A stretch of DNA of 61,676 bases, taken from the NCBI GenBank assembly GCA_035382085.1, contig DAOSZO010000005.1, positions 1 through 61,676 on the forward strand, written 5' to 3'. Below, in pieces: positions 1,371 through 55,672 of the stretch; within the stretch, counting starts at the first letter, position 1; the number at the start of each line of letters is the position of its first letter. The DNA is from Smithella sp. Lineage in GTDB: Bacteria > Desulfobacterota > Syntrophia > Syntrophales > Smithellaceae. The position numbers and the translations under genes were made by a program. The notes beneath the pieces were generated by a model. The model ran no database searches. It had not been told where the DNA came from and saw only the letters and a program-made list of their open reading frames with translations.

Positions 1371-1488
1371 TCATGCAGGATCATGAAAACGGTTTCCGAT
1401 CACCCCCAACTTCCTCGAAAATCAAAAATCGAAAAGAAGAGGGTTGCTGTTCGATGACAATGAACCATTCCTTGAAAAGGAGATGAAA

Positions 1489-2631
1489 ATGGATTTTGAA
1501 CTATCCAATGAAATGAAAATGTTGGCCGACATGGCTTACAAGTTTGCTCTTCAGGAAGTTGACCCTGTGGCCAGGAAGGCGGCCGAAGAAGAAAGGTACA
1601 CGCCGGAAATCCGGAAAAAGGCCGGAGCGCAGGGGTTGATCGGCTGCTGGATTCCCGAGGAATTCGGCGGCAGTGGCGCGGGTTTTCTGGGCAATACGAT
1701 TATCACGGAGCAGATTGGCCGTGTGTGCATCGGCATCGGCCTAAATATCACGGCGGCCACCTTCGGATGCGAAACCCTTTACTACTATGGGACACGGGAA
1801 CAAAAGCAAAAATATTTTCCCCCGATATGCGCCGGTGAAACGGTATGTGCCGGGGCATTCACGGAGCCGAACGCCGGTACGGATGTGGCCGGCTACAAGA
1901 CCAGAGCCGTCGAGGACGGCGGCGATTTTGTCATTACCGGCAATAAAATGTTTATTACCAATGGCACCGTTTGCGACTGGATGGTGGTGCAGGCTATTAC
2001 CGATCCGGATCAGAAAGCGCATAAAAGCTTCAGCCAGTTCATTGTTCCTTCTGACGCGAAGGGCGTCACCCGAACAAAAATCAAGGGCAAGATGGGCATT
2101 AGAGCCAGCGACACGGCGGAAATCGCCTTTGACGAAGTGAGAGTCCCCAAGGAAAACATCATCGGCAAGAGAGGTCATGGCTTTTACCAGTTGATGCACT
2201 TTTTCGACACCACGCGGGTGATGGTCGCGGCGCAGGGGTTGGGTCTCGCGCAGGCGTGTCTCGAAGAGTCGGTCAAATACTGCAAGGAGCGGACGGCTTT
2301 TGGCAAGCCTCTCGGTTCTTTTCAGATGACCATGCAGAAACTCACCGAGATGTGGATTAGGGTAGAAGCGCTGCGCAACATGACCTACAAGGCCGCGTGG
2401 TTGCTGGATTGCGGCAGGCCCGATTATCATCTTTCGGCTATGGCCAAGTATCTGGCCGGCCAAACGGCCGTTTTCTGCGCCAATCTGGCGGTGGAGCTCC
2501 ACGGCGGTTATGGATACCTTGATGAGTATAAGGTGCAGAAATATTACCGCGATGCCAAAATTCTTGAACTTTACGAGGGAACCAAGGAAGCGGAAATCAT
2601 GACGTTGGGGAGAATCCTCCTGTCTCGGTAG
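1489..2631 (+). CDS. Acyl-CoA dehydrogenase
   Basis: FTEPNAGTD, GNKMFITNG, KMGIRASDT and KILELYEGT motifs. Start chosen at the ATG downstream of the AAGGAG RBS (about 1477). Confidence 0.95.
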   Translation: MDFELSNEMKMLADMAYKFALQEVDPVARKAAEEERYTPEIRKKAGAQGLIGCWIPEEFGGSGAGFLGNTIITEQIGRVCIGIGLNITAATFGCETLYYYGTREQKQKYFPPICAGETVCAGAFTEPNAGTDVAGYKTRAVEDGGDFVITGNKMFITNGTVCDWMVVQAITDPDQKAHKSFSQFIVPSDAKGVTRTKIKGKMGIRASDTAEIAFDEVRVPKENIIGKRGHGFYQLMHFFDTTRVMVAAQGLGLAQACLEESVKYCKERTAFGKPLGSFQMTMQKLTEMWIRVEALRNMTYKAAWLLDCGRPDYHLSAMAKYLAGQTAVFCANLAVELHGGYGYLDEYKVQKYYRDAKILELYEGTKEAEIMTLGRILLSR

Positions 2632-9500: not shown

Positions 9501-10098
9501 GGCCTTCGGACAGGTGAATCTGCTCGCCCTGGATGAATACGAGGAACTGGAGAAACGTTACAATTTCCTGTCCGCGCAAATCACCGATCTCAACACTTCC
9601 CTGAATGTTCTGCAGAGGACCATTACCCGGATCAACAGAATTTCGCGCGCGCGCTTTGCGGAGACCTTCGAAGCCGTGAACCAGTGCTTCAAGGAAGTAT
9701 TTGCGCAGATTTTCCCGGGAGGCCGCGGAGAGTTGGTGCTCACCGATGAAAATGATCTGCTTGAAACCGGCGTGGATATTGACGTGCAGGTCCCGGGCAA
9801 GAGAAAACAGAATGTCAGCCTCTTGTCCGGGGGGGAGAAATCTCTGGTTGCGGTGGCGCTGATTTTTGCGATTTTGAAATATCGGCCGTCGCCTTTTCTG
9901 GTGCTCGATGAGGTGGATGCCGCGCTGGATGACGCCAACACCAATTTGTTCAACCGGCTCATTCGGGATGTGGCGCAGCAATCCCAGGTGGTGCTGATTA
10001 CCCATAACAAGAGCACCATGGAAGTAGCCGATACCCTCTTTGGCGTGACCATGCAGAAACAGGGCATTTCCACGCTTGTTTCCGTCAGTCTGAATTAA
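6547..10098 (+). CDS. smc: Chromosome segregation protein SMC
   Basis: Walker A GPNGCGKSN, long coiled coils, hinge, LSGGEK signature, LDEVDAALD Walker B/D-loop; 1183 aa. Confidence 0.98.
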   Translation: MNLKRLEISGFKSFRDKVTLDFSRGITGIVGPNGCGKSNIVDAIRWVMGEQRVKALRGKKMDDVVFNGSQDSAAVSMAEVTMTLVANGYKFPGNYSDLNEVSITRRVVLEGESEYYINKVPCRLLDVKEFFMGTGVGARTYSLIEQGQVASLVEAKPEDRRLFIEDAAGVSKYKSRKEAAVRKMEATKQNLLRLNDIVKEVKTQLNNISRQAKRAEQFKQISQQSREAELTLALQNYVDLSEKEMVLEKQRLDLQGQSSVMLTNIESRESIVQEMKTKLLELEEQIGTRQHELYEIKNAISLKEKNIEFAHHQMAAAHERKQKNFSEIEIWRVKKNDLMAEVENLEKIFAETENKIAELQKERDELQQHLQNLIRADQEVGTQLEEKKVVFIDLMMEKAKLKNMVASLEKDIEDLDKREERENRELNEDKRLLSDLLARQDSVSQQLQRDDEQIRSLEQQKAQAEEDIERFQEELRINDEQVSQIKEAMHVKSSRLASLREFQETYKWCNESVQTIIANEEHRGKFYGVVADHINVPREYETAVEAVLGEKLQYVVVKSQEDGVRAIDYLKSNRLGRSSFVSVDLRNYYAKTYSEEHLIEAEPLLDKVKVNEDYRPIVDCLLGDVLLIPNIENGISLWKRNGFRGTFVTPEGDIISPNGVLTGGSKAAAEKSLLAIKREIGELEEEVARLNASLRERTNRRYELVPAIARAEEEAQKLTADVHSLEIAVSMKKKDLERFAAEIERLHQRISVLEYNGQNLKQEKSEAEEKLRVYSAEIVQKETMEALINDSIAAFNVTREQAHADILRQEHLLTDKKVTLASLEEKKEAYRQRLARLADDLASADHEMKVKGEDIISCDRQIEEFQRSIESEQSSLKDLYEHFAVQEKLLQDHKAEQNRQAVQVQSQETEIREVKSKLDGLRQQLNEVEMSCREVVLNRENLKRAIAEKYHEVDLAAMVTGFERIDEEKQRELIERLEKNKQILEAFGQVNLLALDEYEELEKRYNFLSAQITDLNTSLNVLQRTITRINRISRARFAETFEAVNQCFKEVFAQIFPGGRGELVLTDENDLLETGVDIDVQVPGKRKQNVSLLSGGEKSLVAVALIFAILKYRPSPFLVLDEVDAALDDANTNLFNRLIRDVAQQSQVVLITHNKSTMEVADTLFGVTMQKQGISTLVSVSLN

Positions 10099-10162
10099 TC
10101 CATTTCTTTACTTCTTTTAGAAAAGCGGTTATGCATGATGGCAATGTTAAAAAGGTGTTCCC

Positions 10163-11083
10163 ATGGCTAAAATAGGTTTTTTCGAAAAGTTGAAAACGGG
10201 TTTGACCAAAACCCGGAATGTGCTGACCCGGAATCTGGACAGTCTCATTTTCGGCAAGAGAGTTTTGGATAAGGCGCTGTTTGAAGAGCTGGAGGAACTT
10301 TTGATTGCCGCCGACATGGGGCCGCAGTTTGCCTATGATCTCATTGAAGAGGTGAAACTGCGCGTCAGCCGCAACGAACTTGACGATGCCCAGCAGATCA
10401 AGAAGGTTCTGCAGGAACGAATGACGCAGATTCTGCAAAAAATGGAAAAGCCCCTCGTGGTTCCGCGGGGCAAACCCTTCGTTATGATGACCATTGGAGT
10501 CAACGGAAGCGGAAAAACAACCACCATCGGCAAAATGGCCAATATTCTAAAAAATGACGGTCATGACGTGCTGCTGGTGGCGGCGGATACGTTTCGGGCG
10601 GCGGCGGTGGAGCAGCTTGAAATTTGGGGACAGCGCGTTGGGGTTTCTGTAATGAAGCACCAAGCGAATGCCGATCCGGCGGCGGTCGTTTTTGATGCCA
10701 TGGCAAAAATCAAAGCGGGTTTTTCCGGCGTGGTGATCGTGGATACCGCCGGGCGTCTGCACACGCGCGTCAATCTGATGGAGGAACTCAAAAAAGTAAA
10801 AAGAATCATTCAGAGAGAAGCGCCGGATATTCCTTTGGAAGTGCTCCTCATCCTGGATGCGACGACAGGCCAAAATGCCGTTGTGCAGGCCAAGACTTTT
10901 AAAGAAGAAATCGGGGCGACGGGCATCGTTTTGACCAAGCTGGACGGCACGTCCAAGGGAGGCGTCGTCGTGCGCATTGCCAGCGAACTGGCCCTGCCCG
11001 TGCGCTATATCGGCGTGGGCGAAGGCACGGATGATTTGCGCGTGTTTAACAGCGCGGATTTCACCAGAGCGCTTCTGGAGTGA
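10163..11083 (+). CDS. ftsY: Signal recognition particle receptor FtsY (NG domain only)
   Basis: GVNGSGKTTT, DTFRAAA, DTAGR and TKLDGTSKGG motifs. Confidence 0.97.
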   Translation: MAKIGFFEKLKTGLTKTRNVLTRNLDSLIFGKRVLDKALFEELEELLIAADMGPQFAYDLIEEVKLRVSRNELDDAQQIKKVLQERMTQILQKMEKPLVVPRGKPFVMMTIGVNGSGKTTTIGKMANILKNDGHDVLLVAADTFRAAAVEQLEIWGQRVGVSVMKHQANADPAAVVFDAMAKIKAGFSGVVIVDTAGRLHTRVNLMEELKKVKRIIQREAPDIPLEVLLILDATTGQNAVVQAKTFKEEIGATGIVLTKLDGTSKGGVVVRIASELALPVRYIGVGEGTDDLRVFNSADFTRALLE

Positions 11084-35460: not shown

Positions 35461-36873
35461 TCAGGTGGTTGTTTGTTTCAATCCTTCAATGATAAAGACA
35501 AATTCATCCTCCGCCACGGTGCGCAAATCGAAGAGAATCTCATCCTTGTCCACGCGGACAATGATGGGCATATCCAGCGCGCGCAGTTTTTCTTCCATTT
35601 TGGTCGCCGGCATCTTTTTGTTTTTGACGGTGACCAAAACCGTGGGAATCTGCTGGGTGGGCAGGGACCCGCCGCCGGCCGCCGAAAAATCTTCACGCAG
35701 AGAAAATTTCAGCGAATCGAAATTTTCGTTTTGCAATCTCGCGATGAGTTTTTCGGCGCGTTTTTTGACCGCGGCAACGGGTTCGGTCAGCGCTTTCAAG
35801 GCGCGCAATTTTTTCGGCGCGGCGTCGGGATTGAGATAGTGCATCAGAGTAGCTTCCAGCGCGGCCAGGGTGAATTTGTCGATGCGCAGGGCGCGGTTGA
35901 GAGGATTCTTTTTGATTTTTGCAATCACTTCTTTTTTGCCGACGATGATGCCCGCCTGCGGGCCGCCCAGCAGTTTGTCGCCGCTGAAAGTGACGACGTC
36001 CACGCCGGTGGCCACAATCTCGCGGACGGTGGGTTCATGCTGCAAGCCGTATTTGTCCAGATCCGTCAGACAGCCGCTTCCCAGATCGTGCATCACCGGA
36101 ATGCCTCTGTTTTTCCCCAGCGTGACCAGCGAGATGATGTCAGCTTCTTCGGTGAAGCCGACGATGCGGTAATTGCTGGTGTGCACTTTCATGATCAGGC
36201 CGGTGTTTTCATGGATGGCCTTTTCGTAGTCGCTCAATCGCGTTCGGTTGGTTGTGCCCACTTCGCGGAGCCTGGAGGCGCTTTTCTGCATGATTTCGGG
36301 AATACGAAATTCGCCGCCGATTTCGATGAGCTCGCCGCGCGACACGATGGCCTCTTTCCCTTCGGCCAGCGTGTTGAGGACCAGCAGAACCGCCGCCGCG
36401 TTGTTGTTGACGATCAGGGCGTCTTCGGCGCCGGTGAGCGCACACAAAAGAGAACGGACATGATCGTAACGCTGGCCGCGCTCTCCCCGGATTAAATCAA
36501 ACTCCAGATTGGAGTAGCCTTTGCCCACCTCCACAATTCTTTGCAGGGCTTCGGGACAAAGCGGCGCGCGTCCCAGGTTGGTGTGCAGAATCACGCCGGT
36601 GGCGTTTGCGACGCGGCGCAGACTGTGGCGGTATAACCCCTTAATGGATTTTTCCACCTCTTTGGCGACCGCCGCCGTGTCCGTCGAGAGGTTGTCCAGT
36701 TCTTTTTTGGAGGCGTTGATGACCCTGTCCCTCAAGTGCTGGACGACGCGCCTGCAGGTTTCCTTGACGATGTCGCGCGGCGCCAGATCATAGATATTTT
36801 GTTTTTCCAGAATCAAGATGATTTCGTCAATCTTCGGCAGTTTTTTCAGCATCTCTTTTTTTTGTTCGTCCAT
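35461..36873 (-). CDS. selA: L-seryl-tRNA(Sec) selenium transferase
   Basis: NATGVILHTNLGRA, SRGELIEIGG, KVHTSNY and FSGDKLLGGPQAG (PLP Lys). The ORF-track extension to 36939 runs through a REP-like element, so the start is set at MDEQ. Confidence 0.96.
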   Translation of the reverse strand: MDEQKKEMLKKLPKIDEIILILEKQNIYDLAPRDIVKETCRRVVQHLRDRVINASKKELDNLSTDTAAVAKEVEKSIKGLYRHSLRRVANATGVILHTNLGRAPLCPEALQRIVEVGKGYSNLEFDLIRGERGQRYDHVRSLLCALTGAEDALIVNNNAAAVLLVLNTLAEGKEAIVSRGELIEIGGEFRIPEIMQKSASRLREVGTTNRTRLSDYEKAIHENTGLIMKVHTSNYRIVGFTEEADIISLVTLGKNRGIPVMHDLGSGCLTDLDKYGLQHEPTVREIVATGVDVVTFSGDKLLGGPQAGIIVGKKEVIAKIKKNPLNRALRIDKFTLAALEATLMHYLNPDAAPKKLRALKALTEPVAAVKKRAEKLIARLQNENFDSLKFSLREDFSAAGGGSLPTQQIPTVLVTVKNKKMPATKMEEKLRALDMPIIVRVDKDEILFDLRTVAEDEFVFIIEGLKQTTT

Positions 36874-36892: not shown

Positions 36893-36977
36893 TCCCTCCC
36901 TTGAGGGGAGGGATTGCAAGGAGGGTGAATCATTTGCACGCTTCACCCCCTTGGGGCCCCTCTCCCGTCGAGGGAGA
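36893..36977. repeat. Composite REP-like palindromic element, same architecture as 27262..27350
   Basis: TCCCTCCC/GGGAGGGA hairpin, CAAGGAGGGTGAA/TTCACCCCCTTG hairpin and TCTCCC-gtcga-GGGAGA hairpin. Confidence 0.7.
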
Positions 36978-37038: not shown

Positions 37039-38307
37039 CTATTCCATCTTCGCCTGCCGGCGGCAATAGTCCCGGAAATTGTTCACGGCGATGAAAAATT
37101 CCCGCATCATGATCACCCACAGATAGCGTCCGTAAGGCGTCAGGTGCAGATAAGGCGGAAAATAGCGGAACGCCCGAACGATCTCAAAGGCGGCGATTTC
37201 TTTCCACAGGGTTTTCAGAAATTTCCCGTCGTATTTTTTCTGCATGGCGGTGAGATCAAGTTTGGTGCTGAACAGTTTCATCAAAAAATCGTAGCGCATC
37301 CGGTCGTGAAGATCAAATCTGCGGGCGGCCTGCAGCGGCAGTTTGCCCTTTTCCAGCGCATCCATGTATGCTTCGATATTAAACGTGTTGGAGTAGCAGG
37401 TGCCGTAAAGATACCCGATGGCGCCGCTCCCGAGGCCTGCGTATTCTTCGTAGTCCACGACATATTCGTCGATCAGAGATTCCTTGCGCGAAAAGCACCA
37501 CGCCGAGGAAAAGTCGTACTTGCTCTCCAGGCGCCTCACGATCAGTTTATAGAACTTTTCTTCGCCGCTGAAATCCATTGCCCCCATGGTTTGCTCCATG
37601 ATGTCCTGCGTGAGTGAGGAAATCATCAGGGGATAGAAGGTGATTTGCTCCATATTCAGGCCCAGCAGAACCCGGAGATCTTCTTCGAGCATCTGAGGCG
37701 TCTGTCCGGGGAAATTGAAAATCATGTCCGCGTTGAACGTGTGGAGACTGCCCTGAACATCTTTGAGCCGCGCGGCGATGACTTCGCCGGAGCCGTATTT
37801 CTCATAACGGCCGATTTTTTTCAGCAGTTCATCGTTGAAGGTCTGAACGCCCACGGAAAGCCGCTTGACGCCGCAATCCCGCAGGATGGAGATATTTTCG
37901 GAAGTCAGATGGTTGGGATTGGTTTCCACGGAAATATCCATGACCGGGAAGATCCGGCATGACAGGGCGAGCGTTTCGGCAAGTTCGTCCATCAGCACGG
38001 TCGGTGTGCCGCCGCCGACGTAAATGCCTTCGAATTGATAACCCCTGTCGCGGTAGATTTCGATTTCCCGCCGCAGAGCTCGGAAATACTTGCGGGCCGT
38101 CGGCGCGTCAAAACGGATGCGGTGAAAGGAGCAGTAAGGACAGAGCTCCTCGCAAAAAGGAACGTGAAGGTAGAGCAGGCGCTTTTCGTTGTCTCGGCAG
38201 GACGGAAGTTCCGGCGCCGGTCCCGGCGAAAAACACAGCGCCCGCTCAAATTCCTTCCGGGCCGTTCTGGTGACAATTTGATTAATCATATTGATGCGTT
38301 TTTTCAT
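37039..38307 (-). CDS. menK: HemN-like class C radical SAM protein, probable menaquinone C8-methyltransferase (MenK/MqnK)
   Basis: YLHVPFCEELCPYC, YVGGGTP, RLSVGVQTF, QITFYPLM (37624-37647) and C-terminal GRYLWVIMMREFF...NNFR. HemN family assignment is secure; the MenK assignment rests on recalled motifs. Confidence 0.72.
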   Translation of the reverse strand: MKKRINMINQIVTRTARKEFERALCFSPGPAPELPSCRDNEKRLLYLHVPFCEELCPYCSFHRIRFDAPTARKYFRALRREIEIYRDRGYQFEGIYVGGGTPTVLMDELAETLALSCRIFPVMDISVETNPNHLTSENISILRDCGVKRLSVGVQTFNDELLKKIGRYEKYGSGEVIAARLKDVQGSLHTFNADMIFNFPGQTPQMLEEDLRVLLGLNMEQITFYPLMISSLTQDIMEQTMGAMDFSGEEKFYKLIVRRLESKYDFSSAWCFSRKESLIDEYVVDYEEYAGLGSGAIGYLYGTCYSNTFNIEAYMDALEKGKLPLQAARRFDLHDRMRYDFLMKLFSTKLDLTAMQKKYDGKFLKTLWKEIAAFEIVRAFRYFPPYLHLTPYGRYLWVIMMREFFIAVNNFRDYCRRQAKME

Positions 38308-38420
38308 TCATGTTCTTTGTTTTGTTTAGCAAAATATGCACGTTTATTGCAAGCGACAATTCCTTGAAATACGGATGAAGAGGTGGTAAATGAAATCAAA
38401 TTATTGGGCGGTGAAGGTTT

Positions 38421-38981
38421 ATGTCCAAAAGTAAAATCCTGACGCTCTGGACTCCGGAGGGTCGAAATGATGATGATATTCCGGTCTTGAGGAAAAAATC
38501 CACGGAAGTCAAAGTGCCCTATGACAAGGAAACGATTGAAATTATTAAAACCCTGGTGGAATCCTTTCTGGAAAGAGACGACGCGGTGGGACTTTCCGCC
38601 CCGCAGATCGGCATCAATAGACGGGTGATTGTCTTTCGCAATAAAGGGTTTGACCAGGAACCGAAGAAAAGGAATAAAAATGACTTTGAGGTTTTGGTGA
38701 ATCCGCGCATCACGCAATCGCGCGGCGAACTGGTGACCATGGCGGAAGGCTGTCTCTCCTGCCCCGACATTCAGGTGGATGTCGCCCGTTTCCCTGAAAT
38801 CAAAGTGCGGGCTTTTGACGCCACGCAAGAAAAGGTGAACAAACGGTATTTGGATTTTGTCGCCCGCATCATTCAGCATGAAATTGACCATCTGGACGGC
38901 AAGCTGATTGTTGATTATGAGGGCAGTATGTATTATCCTAAAGAAAAGCAGCAATTTTTTGAAAAACTTTTCAAGGCTTAA
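38421..38981 (+). CDS. def: Peptide deformylase
   Basis: GLSAPQIG, EGCLS and QHEIDHLDG motifs. Confidence 0.95.
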   Translation: MSKSKILTLWTPEGRNDDDIPVLRKKSTEVKVPYDKETIEIIKTLVESFLERDDAVGLSAPQIGINRRVIVFRNKGFDQEPKKRNKNDFEVLVNPRITQSRGELVTMAEGCLSCPDIQVDVARFPEIKVRAFDATQEKVNKRYLDFVARIIQHEIDHLDGKLIVDYEGSMYYPKEKQQFFEKLFKA

Positions 38982-40544: not shown

Positions 40545-40943
40545 ATGGCCAAACCAAATCCGCAGGACAGGTATTATTCCCGTGACCATGAATGGCTGAT
40601 TTACTACAGCGACGGCACCGCCTTGATCGGCATCACCGATTACGCGCAGGAAATGCTGACGGATATCGTGTTTGTCGACCTGCCGGAAATTGGCCGAAGA
40701 GTTGTTCAGCATGCCACCGTGGCCGTCATCGAATCGGTCAAATCCGTTTCCGATGTTTTTGCTCCGGTCAGCGGCGAAGTCATTGAGGTGAATTCGCGTC
40801 TGGAAGATTCTCCGGAGTTGATCAATCAGGATGCCTTTGGCGAAGGCTGGATTGTAAAAATGATCGTGGAAGATCCCGAAGAACTCAACATGCTGCTTAC
40901 CGCCGCGGATTACGAAGAAATGCTCAATGAGGAAAAAGAGTAA
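40545..40943 (+). CDS. gcvH: Glycine cleavage H protein
   Basis: HEW, GITDYAQ, ESVK (lipoyl Lys) and INQDAFGEGW motifs. Confidence 0.96.
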   Translation: MAKPNPQDRYYSRDHEWLIYYSDGTALIGITDYAQEMLTDIVFVDLPEIGRRVVQHATVAVIESVKSVSDVFAPVSGEVIEVNSRLEDSPELINQDAFGEGWIVKMIVEDPEELNMLLTAADYEEMLNEEKE

Positions 40944-40959
40944 AGAAAGAAAATAAACC

Positions 40960-42285
40960 ATGGATTACTGCCCGCACACGCCTGATGAGATTCAACAAAT
41001 GAAAGCGGCCGTCGGCATCAGGGATTTGGAAGAACTTTTTGCCGACATTCCCGAAAAATTCAAATTAAAAAAAATGCTCGACCTGCCGCACGCCTTGTCG
41101 GAACAGCAGACGCTTTCTCTGATGCGGGAGATCGCCGGGAAAAACCAATTGCCGCGGATGACCCTGACCGGCGCGGGCGCTTATCATCATTACATTCCCG
41201 CGGTGGTCGGCCACATCGTGGGCCGCGCGGAATTTTATACGGCCTACACGCCGTATCAGGCCGAAATGAGCCAGGGCATTCTGCAGGCAATCTATGAGTA
41301 TCAGACCATGATTGCCCGTCTCACCGGCACGGAAATCGCCAACGCTTCCATGTATGACGGCGCTTCCGCGATGGCCGAGGCCGCGATGCTTTGCGCGAAA
41401 ATGTCCAACAAGACCGAAATGATCGTCGCCCGTTCTGTGCATCCCGAATACAGACAGGTATTAAAAACATATTCGTGGGCGAACGGCTATGCCGTTGTTG
41501 AAATTCCCTATTCGCCGTCAGGGAGGGTTGATCTGAAAACTTTGGAAACCGAGCTGGATCGGCAGGTGGCTGCCGTTGTGGTTCAGAGCCCCAATTTTTT
41601 CGGCGTCATCGAGGATATTGCGTCCATCGCCGATATGGTCCATCAGAAGGGGGCGCTGCTTGTCGCCGGTTTTACGGAAGGCACAAGTCTGGGTATTTTG
41701 AAGCCTGCAGGTGCCCAGGGTGCGGATTTTGTCGTGGGAGAGGGGCAGAGTTTCGGCAATCCCCTGAATTACGGAGGCCCCTATCTGGGCATTTTTGCCG
41801 CCAAGGAAAAATTCATGCGCCGGATACCGGGAAGGCTCGTCGGCGCGACGGTGGATAAAAATGGCCGGCGCGGATTCGTGCTGACCCTGCAAACGCGCGA
41901 GCAGCACATCCGCCGGGAAAAAGCCACATCAAACATTTGTTCCAACGAAGCGCTTTGCGCGCTGGCGGCGGGCGTTTACCTGGCCGCGCTGGGCAAGAAT
42001 CTTAGAAAACTTGCCGAGCTCAATATCCTGAAAGCGCGGTATTTAAAGAAACAGCTGCTGGGAATTCCGGGGTGGAAAGAAGTTTTTTCCGCGCCGGTCT
42101 ATAATGAATTTGTTTTGCGTTGTCCCGATTCCCAAAAGGTGAATGAAAAACTCAAAAGTGAAGGCATCATCGGCGGTTACGAACTGCGGAAAGATTATCC
42201 CGAACTGGAAAACACATTGCTCTTATGTGCTACGGAAATGATGTCCAGGGAAGACATCGATAACGTAGCGGCAATGTTGAAGTAG
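40960..42285 (+). CDS. gcvPA: Glycine dehydrogenase subunit 1
   Basis: GAGAYHH, YTPYQAEMSQG, NASMYDG, GGPYLG and REQHIRREKATSNIC motifs. Confidence 0.97.
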   Translation: MDYCPHTPDEIQQMKAAVGIRDLEELFADIPEKFKLKKMLDLPHALSEQQTLSLMREIAGKNQLPRMTLTGAGAYHHYIPAVVGHIVGRAEFYTAYTPYQAEMSQGILQAIYEYQTMIARLTGTEIANASMYDGASAMAEAAMLCAKMSNKTEMIVARSVHPEYRQVLKTYSWANGYAVVEIPYSPSGRVDLKTLETELDRQVAAVVVQSPNFFGVIEDIASIADMVHQKGALLVAGFTEGTSLGILKPAGAQGADFVVGEGQSFGNPLNYGGPYLGIFAAKEKFMRRIPGRLVGATVDKNGRRGFVLTLQTREQHIRREKATSNICSNEALCALAAGVYLAALGKNLRKLAELNILKARYLKKQLLGIPGWKEVFSAPVYNEFVLRCPDSQKVNEKLKSEGIIGGYELRKDYPELENTLLLCATEMMSREDIDNVAAMLK

Positions 42286-53353: not shown

Positions 53354-54550
53354 TTATTTGAGCTGCTTGCTGGAGTACCCCAGCACGTTGCGGGCCACAA
53401 TCAGGTGCTGAATCTGTCCGGTTCCTTCGAAGATGTCCGTGATCTTGACGTCGCGCATCCATTTTTCCGCGAGATATTCGCAGGAGAAGCCCAGCGGACC
53501 GAGCAGTTCGCAGCACTTTTGGCATATCAGCGTTCCGTAGCGCCCGGCCTTGGCTTTGGACATGGATGCTTCCAGGTTGTTGAACTCGCCGTTGTCCATC
53601 ATCCAGGCCGCGCGCCACGTCAGCAGCCTCATCGCTTCCAGATGAGCCTCCATCATGTAAAATTCCTTTTCCATGGCGCTTAAGTTGTTGGGATTTTTTT
53701 CATAATCCAGCTTGATGCCGCTTTCTTCAAGTTTTTCCCGAGTAAAATCCAGGGCGGCGCGGGTGACACCAAGAGCCATCGCGGCCACCAAGGGGCGCGT
53801 GTTGTCAAAGGTTTTCATGACCCCCTTGAAGCCTTCCGTGGATTGTTTGACTTCGGCGCTGCCCAGAATATTGTCTTTGGGGATGCGGCAATCATCCAGA
53901 ACGTAGGTTCCGGTGTCGGAAGCGCGCACGCCGAGCTTGTGTTCAAGCTTTTCCAGTTTGAATCCCGGCGTTCCTTTTTCCACGACAAAGGATTTTATGC
54001 CGGCCTTGCCGGCGCTCCGGTCCACTGTCGCCCAGATGACAGCCACCTCGGCGCGTTCCGCGCAGGTGACAAAGATCTTTTCGCCGTTGAGCACCCATTC
54101 ATTCCCGTCCAAGGTGGCTCTGGCGGTGATCGAGCCGGAATCTGAGCCTGATCCCGGTTCTGTGATGGCCATCGAAGCCCACTTGTCGCCGAAACGGGCC
54201 ATCTGTTCGTCGGTGGCCACGGCGGCAATGGCGGCGTTGCCCAGACCGGCGTTCGGAAATGACAACAGCAATCCCAAATCTCCCCAGCACATTTCTTCAA
54301 TCACCAGAACCGTGGAGAGATTTTGTCCCAGCTTTTTGGGATCCGGCGTGTCGGGCTTTGCTTCGTCGCTGGCTTTTTTCTTTTTCGGCCGGCTCATGAT
54401 CTTGATGGAACGGAACATATCCAGTTCCTGCGGATATTTGTGTTCATTCTCATCATAGTAGCGCGATATGGGTCTCAGCATGCTGTTGGCCATGTTGTTC
54501 ATGCTGCTTTTCATGTCGATCATTCTTTGGGTCATTTCAAGATTAATCAT
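53354..54550 (-). CDS. Acyl-CoA dehydrogenase, FadE23-like
   Basis: ITEPGSGSD, GEKIFVT, KLGVRASDT, KITDIFEGTGQIQ and C-terminal ARNVLGYSSKQLK. Confidence 0.92.
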   Translation of the reverse strand: MINLEMTQRMIDMKSSMNNMANSMLRPISRYYDENEHKYPQELDMFRSIKIMSRPKKKKASDEAKPDTPDPKKLGQNLSTVLVIEEMCWGDLGLLLSFPNAGLGNAAIAAVATDEQMARFGDKWASMAITEPGSGSDSGSITARATLDGNEWVLNGEKIFVTCAERAEVAVIWATVDRSAGKAGIKSFVVEKGTPGFKLEKLEHKLGVRASDTGTYVLDDCRIPKDNILGSAEVKQSTEGFKGVMKTFDNTRPLVAAMALGVTRAALDFTREKLEESGIKLDYEKNPNNLSAMEKEFYMMEAHLEAMRLLTWRAAWMMDNGEFNNLEASMSKAKAGRYGTLICQKCCELLGPLGFSCEYLAEKWMRDVKITDIFEGTGQIQHLIVARNVLGYSSKQLK

Positions 54551-54562
54551 CGTTCTTTCCTC

Positions 54563-55672
54563 CTATACCATTGCCATGCCTTCGAGAATGGCGATTCCCC
54601 GGCCGTTGCGATAGTAGCGCTCAACCGGATTTTCCCTGATGTATCCGTGACCTCCCAGGATCTGCACCCCGTAATCCGTGATCTTCATCGCCATTTCACC
54701 GGCATAGAGTTTTGCCAGATACGCTTCCCGTTTGGCATCCCGGCCGGCTTCCAGGGCGGAGGCCGCCTTCCAGGTCATCAGTCTCATCGCGTCGACTTCA
54801 TAGGCCATCTCGGCGATCATGAAAGCAATGGACTGGCGGTAAGCGATGGGTTCTCCGAACTGAACCCTTTCCTTGGCATAGTCCCGGGCGTATTCGTAGG
54901 AGGCTCGCGCAACGCCCGTGGCAATAGCGGAAAGCGCCGTTCGGCTTTTCTGCAGAAACTTGCCGTAATCACAGCCGGATTCCCCGCCGACACGATCTTC
55001 TTCGGGCACCTCACAATTTTCCATGGTCACCGGATAAGTTTCCAAAGCGTATAGCCCAAGATTCTTTTCTCTTTCGCCGATTTTCAAGCCGGGATTTTTT
55101 CCATCAATGATAAACAGATTGGCTTTGCCGTCCACGTCCGCCGCGACGAGAAAGTGACCGGCGTTTTTTGCCATGGGAACGAAACATTTCTTGCCGTAAA
55201 GAAGATACTTCGCGCCATTTTTCCGAGCTTTGGTTTCCAGCGAAACCGCGTCGAATTGAAACCGCAGTTCGTTGACGGCTGCCGCGCAGGGCTTATACGC
55301 GGCATCACAGTATAAGGGCAGGTACTTCTTTTTTTGTTCTTCCGTGCCCAGTTCCAAGAGCGTAAAAATAAAAAGGGAAGGGAGATTGGCGGCGATGGCC
55401 AATGCCATATCCCCGTAGGCCAATTCTTCTAAAACGATAGTGTTCATAATCGGCGAATATTCCATGCCGTACCCGCCGTAGACTTCCGGGACCATCGAAA
55501 CCGTCGCCCCCAGTTCCCAGATCTTGTCAATGATTTCTCTGGGAAGGGTCCTGGACTCATCCATGTCGTGGGCGGGGTTTCCGATAACCGCGCTCTTCAT
55601 CAGGCGGGCAATGGTCTCCTTCATGCTGCTTTGTTCTTCAGACATTCCGAAGCCAAAAGGTCTGTCGTCCAT
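54563..55672 (-). CDS. Acyl-CoA dehydrogenase-like partner subunit, FadE24-like
   Basis: ACAD fold (GKKCFVP, RVQFGEPIA, VQILGGHGY), but the FAD motif is degenerate (NELRFQFD) and the protein stops shortly after LEG. Confidence 0.88.
   Translation of the reverse strand: MDDRPFGFGMSEEQSSMKETIARLMKSAVIGNPAHDMDESRTLPREIIDKIWELGATVSMVPEVYGGYGMEYSPIMNTIVLEELAYGDMALAIAANLPSLFIFTLLELGTEEQKKKYLPLYCDAAYKPCAAAVNELRFQFDAVSLETKARKNGAKYLLYGKKCFVPMAKNAGHFLVAADVDGKANLFIIDGKNPGLKIGEREKNLGLYALETYPVTMENCEVPEEDRVGGESGCDYGKFLQKSRTALSAIATGVARASYEYARDYAKERVQFGEPIAYRQSIAFMIAEMAYEVDAMRLMTWKAASALEAGRDAKREAYLAKLYAGEMAMKITDYGVQILGGHGYIRENPVERYYRNGRGIAILEGMAMV

Follow-up and report, generated by a model that had tools for sequence, protein, structure and literature searches.

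Wolinella succinogenes MqnK is an 8-methylmenaquinone-6 synthase (Hein et al. 2017, as cited in PMC10114718), and in the Coriobacteriia Adlercreutzia equolifaciens and Collinsella tanakaei, MenK and MenK2 account for C-8 and C-7 methylation of menaquinone (PMC10114718). Six signature motifs of these MqnK/MenK/MenK2 menaquinone methyltransferases are listed in Table 2 of PMC10320005 (after Wilkens et al. 2021), with frequencies given for 828 menaquinone methyltransferases and 7747 HemW proteins. Syntrophus aciditrophicus contains 8-methylmenaquinone, which is the substrate of the electron transfer flavoprotein (ETF):menaquinone oxidoreductase (EMO) (PMC8805022; bioRxiv 10.64898/2026.08.18.745454). 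Here, we analysed a HemN-like gene of Smithella sp. (order Syntrophales) on contig DAOSZO010000005.1 of assembly GCA_035382085.1. This contig of 61,676 nt (contig C5 of the 2.45 Mb, 94% complete genome) is referred to below as the window. The best explanation, which we consider likely, is that its product is a MenK-type class C radical S-adenosylmethionine (SAM) methyltransferase providing methylmenaquinone for a reverse redox loop between EMO and formate dehydrogenase.

A probable MenK-type radical SAM protein in Smithella

The original prediction had described a class C radical SAM protein with QITFYPLM and a C-terminal GRYLWVIMMREFF..NNFR, and all of these features were found in an intact open reading frame.

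37039..38307 (-): class C radical SAM gene of the MenK type, 422 aa when read from the first ATG; stop codon TAG at 37039-37041

No internal stop codon occurs over the 422 aa. The identical protein in public gene calls starts at M7 (ATG at window position 38289) and has 416 aa, and neither candidate start is preceded by a strong ribosome-binding site. Radical_SAM is the sole Pfam domain (residues 47-212, E 7e-23), and the cluster motif CEELCPYC occupies residues 52-59. Regular expressions for the six signature motifs (LYxHxPFCxxxCxxCxF, YFxxxRxE, GxxFxxxYxGGGT, RxSxGxQxFxxxxL, QxTxYPLx, and NxFxxxxY) all matched the protein, and that for the HemW motif HNxxYW gave no match. Among HemW proteins, YFxxxRxE occurs in 0.1%, GxxFxxxYxGGGT in 2.2%, and QxTxYPLx in 0.0% (PMC10320005). 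The matches and the conserved C-terminal helix lie at the following positions.

38125..38175 (-): motif 1, LYLHVPFCEELCPYCSF, residues 45-61, including CxxxCxxC, which ligates the radical SAM [4Fe-4S] cluster
38005..38088 (-): motif 2, YFRALRRE (residues 74-81), and motif 3, GYQFEGIYVGGGT (residues 89-101; GGGT SAM-binding loop)
37822..37863 (-): motif 4, RLSVGVQTFNDELL, residues 149-162
37624..37647 (-): motif 5, QITFYPLM, residues 221-228
37363..37386 (-): motif 6, NTFNIEAY, residues 307-314
37072..37131 (-): C-terminal helix motif, GRYLWVIMMREFFIAVNNFR, residues 393-412; family consensus GxYxxxxxMREFFxxxxxxR

In an alignment of 25 family sequences (30-54% identity to the query), L45, Y46, H48, P50, C52, C56, C59, and F61 of motif 1 are invariant, as are Q221, T223, Y225, P226, and R412, while conservation reaches at least 90% at M228, G393, M401, and F404. 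QITFYPLM and the C-terminal motif are therefore features of the family and not chance matches. The AlphaFold2 model of the protein (mean predicted local distance difference test score, pLDDT, 92.3) has full-length E. coli HemN as its best PDB match (1OLT; template modelling (TM) score 0.71, 419 columns, 22% identity), and this match over the whole length indicates a full class C (HemN-like) scaffold. The PDB contains HemN and NocN structures only and none of a MenK.

Profile searches gave the same assignment. NF006385 is the only NCBIfam model that the protein passed (489 bits vs. a cut-off of 355); its scores for ChuW/HutW (TIGR04107, 157 vs. 400), HemW (TIGR00539, 145 vs. 205), and HemN (TIGR00538, 116 vs. 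325) all remained below cut-off. NF006385 carries the generic name "coproporphyrinogen III oxidase family protein", but in effect it works as a menaquinone methyltransferase model. It reaches 677 bits in Campylobacter concisus and 623 bits in Ferrimonas sediminum, finds two paralogues over cut-off each in Adlercreutzia sp., Collinsella tanakaei, and Rubneribacter, and its cut-off is exceeded in none of 14 control genomes. Within the order, 23 of 26 genomes (our own included) have one family member over cut-off, and these genomes cover all 11 sampled genera.

The phylogeny that the original prediction had proposed as a check was calculated with IQ-TREE (LG+C20 PMSF) from 72 sequences, including E. 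coli HemN, HemW, and O157 ChuW, and did not group the protein with HemW or ChuW. The menaquinone methyltransferases form a clade with support values of 99/93 (core 100/99) that excludes all three E. coli proteins, HemN being the most distant branch and O157 ChuW standing outside the clade on a long branch. The window protein belongs to a Smithella clade (100/99) within a Syntrophales clade of 13 sequences (100/99), which also includes a metagenome-assembled genome (MAG) labelled Syntrophus aciditrophicus (54% identity to the window protein); its nearest homologues are found in Smithella MAGs (74-82% identity). Taken together, motifs, profile, tree, and fold make the window gene very probably a MenK-type menaquinone methyltransferase, in line with the predicted placement in the MenK/MqnK family rather than with HemW, ChuW, or HemN. 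"MenK" fits better than "MqnK", as the lineage lacks futalosine genes. This is a correct re-annotation that adds a member to an already known family, in the lineage in which methylmenaquinone physiology was worked out.

QxTxYPLM is shared by the window protein, all Syntrophales, Ferrimonas, one of the two Coriobacteriia paralogue sets, and Campylobacter, where the sequence is likewise QITFYPLM. The second Coriobacteriia set lacks it and, on our own reading of the sequences, may represent the C-7-specific MenK2. The gene and its near homologues are labelled "coproporphyrinogen III oxidase family protein" by NCBI, and most JGI records read "coproporphyrinogen III oxidase-like Fe-S oxidoreductase". 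The expectation that automated pipelines mislabel this gene thus held for NCBI-style annotation but only in part for JGI, where some records already carry the name "menaquinone C8-methyltransferase".

Two further observations concern other homologues. In a well-supported subclade from Gammaproteobacteria, Steroidobacteraceae, and Myxococcaceae MAGs (L053-L058, L063, L064, L102, L106), 45-47% identical to the window protein, motif 5 reads QxSxYPLM, with T replaced by S, and NxFxxxxY is missing. The 3714-aa representative protein P0130 contains a full MenK-like domain at residues 2465-2880 (43% identity); its size reflects either an unusual giant fusion or an error in gene calling.

Redox partners and proposed mechanism

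Partner genes of the redox loop are encoded elsewhere in the genome and, for the acyl-CoA dehydrogenases, also in the window. The search for EMO suggested with the original prediction recovered a 723-aa homologue, which carries a membrane domain at its N-terminus plus two CCG domains and scores 401 bits to PDB 9OJN, the Mycobacterium smegmatis EMO (bioRxiv 10.64898/2026.08.18.745454). The end of etfA, encoding the EtfA C-terminus, lies directly upstream of this gene, and EtfAB adjoins an acyl-CoA dehydrogenase on contig C20. On contig C11 (8300-12877, (-)), a homologue of E. coli FdnG (44.6% identity) with a twin-arginine (Tat) signal contains an in-frame TGA at residue 186, which aligns to E. 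coli Sec196. It is followed by FdnH and by a 228-aa protein with multiple transmembrane segments, taken as an FdnI-type cytochrome b from sequence and position, so that the set is predicted to be a periplasmic selenocysteine formate dehydrogenase of the FdnGHI type. With EMO, ETF, acyl-CoA dehydrogenases, and FdnGHI found, every part of the S. aciditrophicus reverse redox loop is present. The acyl-CoA dehydrogenase genes of the window are the following.

1444..2631 (+): acyl-CoA dehydrogenase family gene, proposed electron donor side
53354..55672 (-): a pair of neighbouring acyl-CoA dehydrogenase family genes, at 53354-54550 and 54563-55672

If the enzyme works like other members of its family, one SAM, held by the [4Fe-4S] cluster (C52/C56/C59), would be cleaved to a 5'-deoxyadenosyl radical. 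A second SAM would have its methyl group activated by this radical and added to an sp2 carbon in the naphthoquinone ring of membrane menaquinone. The methylation site is most likely C-8, which would give 8-methylmenaquinone (about -150 mV). The methylated quinone may then shuttle electrons between a cytoplasm-facing EMO, fed by acyl-CoA dehydrogenases via ETF, and the periplasm-facing selenocysteine formate dehydrogenase of the FdnGHI type, in a reverse redox loop as in S. aciditrophicus. The single gene copy, QxTxYPLM, and the 8-methylmenaquinone of S. aciditrophicus point to a C-8 methyltransferase by analogy; C-8 regiospecificity, the role in vivo, and the origin of the substrate are what we infer here beyond family membership. 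The predicted supply of a redox carrier for reverse electron transfer is backed by the partner genes, but neither known route to the naphthoquinone ring is encoded in the genome.

Missing head-group biosynthesis and alternative explanations

Several findings weigh against the proposed role. MenD, MenC, and a true MenB were not found in the 94% complete genome, and neither were MqnA/D and MqnC/E, with no match to PF02621. The genome encodes two divergent MenA-like UbiA prenyltransferases (on contigs C35 and C79), both below every curated MenA cut-off. At the site where a congener has a 7.5-kb men cassette, our contig C2 has only about 285 bp of intergenic DNA (40737-41022). In the tree, the Syntrophales clade is sister to, and not nested in, the clade of Campylobacterota, Ferrimonas, and Coriobacteriia, and characterised enzymes (W. 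succinogenes MqnK, A. equolifaciens MenK/MenK2, and others) are represented by stand-ins from congeners or conspecifics (Campylobacter, F. sediminum, C. tanakaei, and Adlercreutzia sp.). Since the Syntrophales clade is a sister group, regiospecificity is derived from the motif and from the quinone reported for S. aciditrophicus. Finally, Campylobacter jejuni CgdH2, which falls in the menaquinone methyltransferase clade and has the six motifs, binds heme and receives it from ferrochelatase (PMC10320005).

The searches for head-group genes were accompanied by positive controls, which recovered MenD in Ferrimonas and PF02621 in C. concisus and Sulfuricurvum. Weak TIGR03699 matches to futalosine MqnC/E proved to be HydE and HydG, and tblastn matches of E. 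coli MenB, MenE, and MenF were crotonase, acyl-CoA ligase, and TrpE-like paralogues. Across the 26 genomes of the order, a sample that includes our own and near-closed genomes, MenD exceeded its cut-off in four and MqnA/D in none, and UbiE/MenG did so in 23 (in our genome with 224 vs. a cut-off of 158).

The congener with the cassette (G010, C1:158600-166100; L140/L141) carries menF-menD-menB-menA-menC-menE on the same contig as its menK, where the menC and menE ORFs were assigned by best match to MenC and MenE. The flanks of this cassette align to our contig C2 at 46937-41022 and 40737-28882. As these syntenic flanks meet across about 285 bp within one contig, the absence of the cassette is real and not an assembly gap, and the classical menaquinone pathway is a true presence/absence polymorphism within the genus. 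In a near-closed congener (G002), the left flank of the site matches, and the right flank is not found within 17 kb. A comparative study of Smithellaceae from 2026 independently reported menB in about a quarter of genomes and in the Syntrophus outgroup but left menaquinone "unresolved", as loss was not separable from incompleteness (PMC13685792). The supplements of the quinone-distribution paper contain no Syntrophus or Smithella entries.

One of the MenA-like prenyltransferases (C35:9534-11672, (-)) reaches about 99 bits with the best MenA models, all below cut-off, and the next gene downstream encodes an AhbD/NirJ2-like radical SAM/SPASM protein (303 bits vs. a cut-off of 500). Many relatives, though not all of them, have an orthologue of the prenyltransferase (55-74% identity), which in two genomes accompanies a canonical MenA. 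Outside the order, Collinsella tanakaei An791 (G028) shows a pattern as in Syntrophales, with two methyltransferase paralogues over the NF006385 cut-off (L116, L121), no MenD (E<=1e-30), and no PF02621 match.

The original prediction had named a lack of menaquinone biosynthesis as evidence against it, and this applies to one half of the pathway: MenD/MenB/MenC and MqnA/C/D are absent, but the late steps are represented by UbiE/MenG and MenA-like proteins. In our view, the family assignment is not overturned, since this late-steps-only pattern co-occurs with EMO throughout the order and menaquinone is already complete when the enzyme methylates it. With both known head-group pathways absent, the substrate must either be scavenged, as 1,4-dihydroxy-2-naphthoate (DHNA) or as menaquinone, or be made by an undescribed route. 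The former would refine rather than exclude the proposed MenK function, with uptake of DHNA or menaquinone, finishing by MenA-like enzymes and UbiE, and retuning to low potential by MenK. Accordingly, most Smithella, including ours, could be head-group auxotrophs that import DHNA or menaquinone from neighbours, methylate it, and keep MenK, UbiE/MenG, MenA-like prenyltransferases, and EMO. We hold this view tentatively, with somewhat less than even confidence. It agrees with the clean absence of the cassette at the syntenic site, with the order-wide scarcity of MenD and MqnA/D next to frequent MenK and UbiE/MenG, and with the Smithellaceae survey, but no uptake system is known or has been identified, and the MenA-like proteins score under the curated cut-offs. 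The alternative to auxotrophy, a third, undescribed head-group pathway in Syntrophales, would produce the same gene pattern.

The remaining explanations concern the reaction itself. A C-7-specific (MenK2-like) or dual-specificity enzyme, forming 7-methyl- or 7,8-dimethylmenaquinone, is conceivable insofar as NF006385 passes both Coriobacteriia paralogues without separating MenK from MenK2 and the Syntrophales clade lies outside the clade holding both. It is nevertheless unlikely, as each genome has one copy and no second paralogue, QxTxYPLM is shared with the single-copy enzymes of Campylobacter and Ferrimonas but absent from what we take to be the MenK2 set, and 8-methylmenaquinone was reported for S. 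aciditrophicus (PMC8805022). The CgdH2 findings would allow a heme chaperone or other heme-handling protein with no methyltransferase role, but our genome encodes a bona fide HemW (C34:3975-5144, TIGR00539 274 vs. 205), so that such a role is less needed. The CgdH2 authors themselves raise a possible role in methylation (PMC10320005), and the order-wide co-conservation with UbiE/MenG and EMO fits a quinone function, which makes the heme chaperone a very improbable reading. An oxygen-independent coproporphyrinogen III dehydrogenase (HemN), as implied by the overall fold and the database names, is hardly credible given the low TIGR00538 score, the distant position of E. coli HemN in the tree, the absence of the signature motifs from HemN, and the siroheme (Ahb) route by which heme is made in this lineage (PMC13685792).

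Neighbourhood and conservation in Syntrophales

As originally predicted, menK is located upstream of selA, which follows directly after a spacer of about 165 nt, and def is its divergent neighbour.

35461..36873 (-): selA, L-seryl-tRNA(Sec) selenium transferase, downstream of menK
38421..38981 (+): def, peptide deformylase, conserved order-wide
38400..38427 (-): promoter-like site TGGACA-16-AATAAT between def and menK, a consensus match only (10/12), lying some 95 nt before the first ATG of menK
36893-36977: a pair of GC-rich hairpins, ctccctcgacgggagag and ccctcccctcaagggaggg, within the menK-selA spacer

No T-run follows the spacer hairpins on the coding strand, and a terminator scan of the spacer gave matches on the wrong strand only. 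The order def, menK-selA-rluD is kept in essentially all Syntrophales loci examined and was seen at no examined locus outside the order except in one unclassified MAG. The predicted selenocysteine formate dehydrogenase is an obvious SelA client in the redox loop, and the suggested link between the position of selA and this enzyme is compatible with the order-wide arrangement, but an inherited gene order is equally compatible with it. In one Smithella genome (L019, ERZ25039480 contig_20108), an IS481-family transposase (9635-10786) is inserted between menK and selA, and a second IS481-family copy is found nearby in the gcv region.

Implications and comparison with known systems

NCBI-style annotation hides MenK under a heme-biosynthesis name, whereas the correct gene name marks syntrophs able to make the low-potential methylmenaquinone needed by the EMO/formate dehydrogenase loop. 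The comparison of the men cassette at a fixed site turns a point left open in PMC13685792 into a demonstrable absence for our genome. It also raises the testable hypothesis that a key cofactor of methanogenic consortia is cross-fed. If this is true, syntrophic fatty-acid oxidation would owe its central energy coupling to a cofactor that is a community good, passed on by cross-feeding and then remodelled.

The closest counterpart is S. aciditrophicus, whose MenK has reportedly been produced functionally in E. coli. The labelled MAG of this species shares with Smithella the Syntrophales clade, the six motifs, the order def, menK-selA, and the EMO/ETF/formate dehydrogenase context. In contrast, Syntrophus represents a different family and genus, and our genome lacks the men head-group genes, of which menB is present in the Syntrophus outgroup (PMC13685792).

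W. succinogenes MqnK and its Campylobacterota homologues have the same class C scaffold, six motifs, and NF006385 assignment, with QITFYPLM identical in Campylobacter. However, they share 36-38% identity with the window protein, form part of the sister clade, and belong to organisms using the futalosine pathway that is absent here. Coriobacteriia MenK and MenK2 (37-42% identity) likewise fall under NF006385, and the paralogue set with QxTxYPLM resembles the window protein. Coriobacteriia with two paralogues make dimethylmenaquinone, whereas our genome has a single gene, and their putative MenK2 set lacks motif 5. C. jejuni CgdH2 resembles the window protein in its motifs and clade, but heme transfer was reported for CgdH2, and the Smithella genome has a separate HemW. 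Finally, the HemN fold and the two-SAM class C architecture are shared with HemN (1OLT), HemW, ChuW/HutW, and NocN, but the window protein differs from HemN, HemW, and ChuW/HutW in scoring below their curated cut-offs, in its distance from them in the tree, and in lacking the HNxxYW of HemW.

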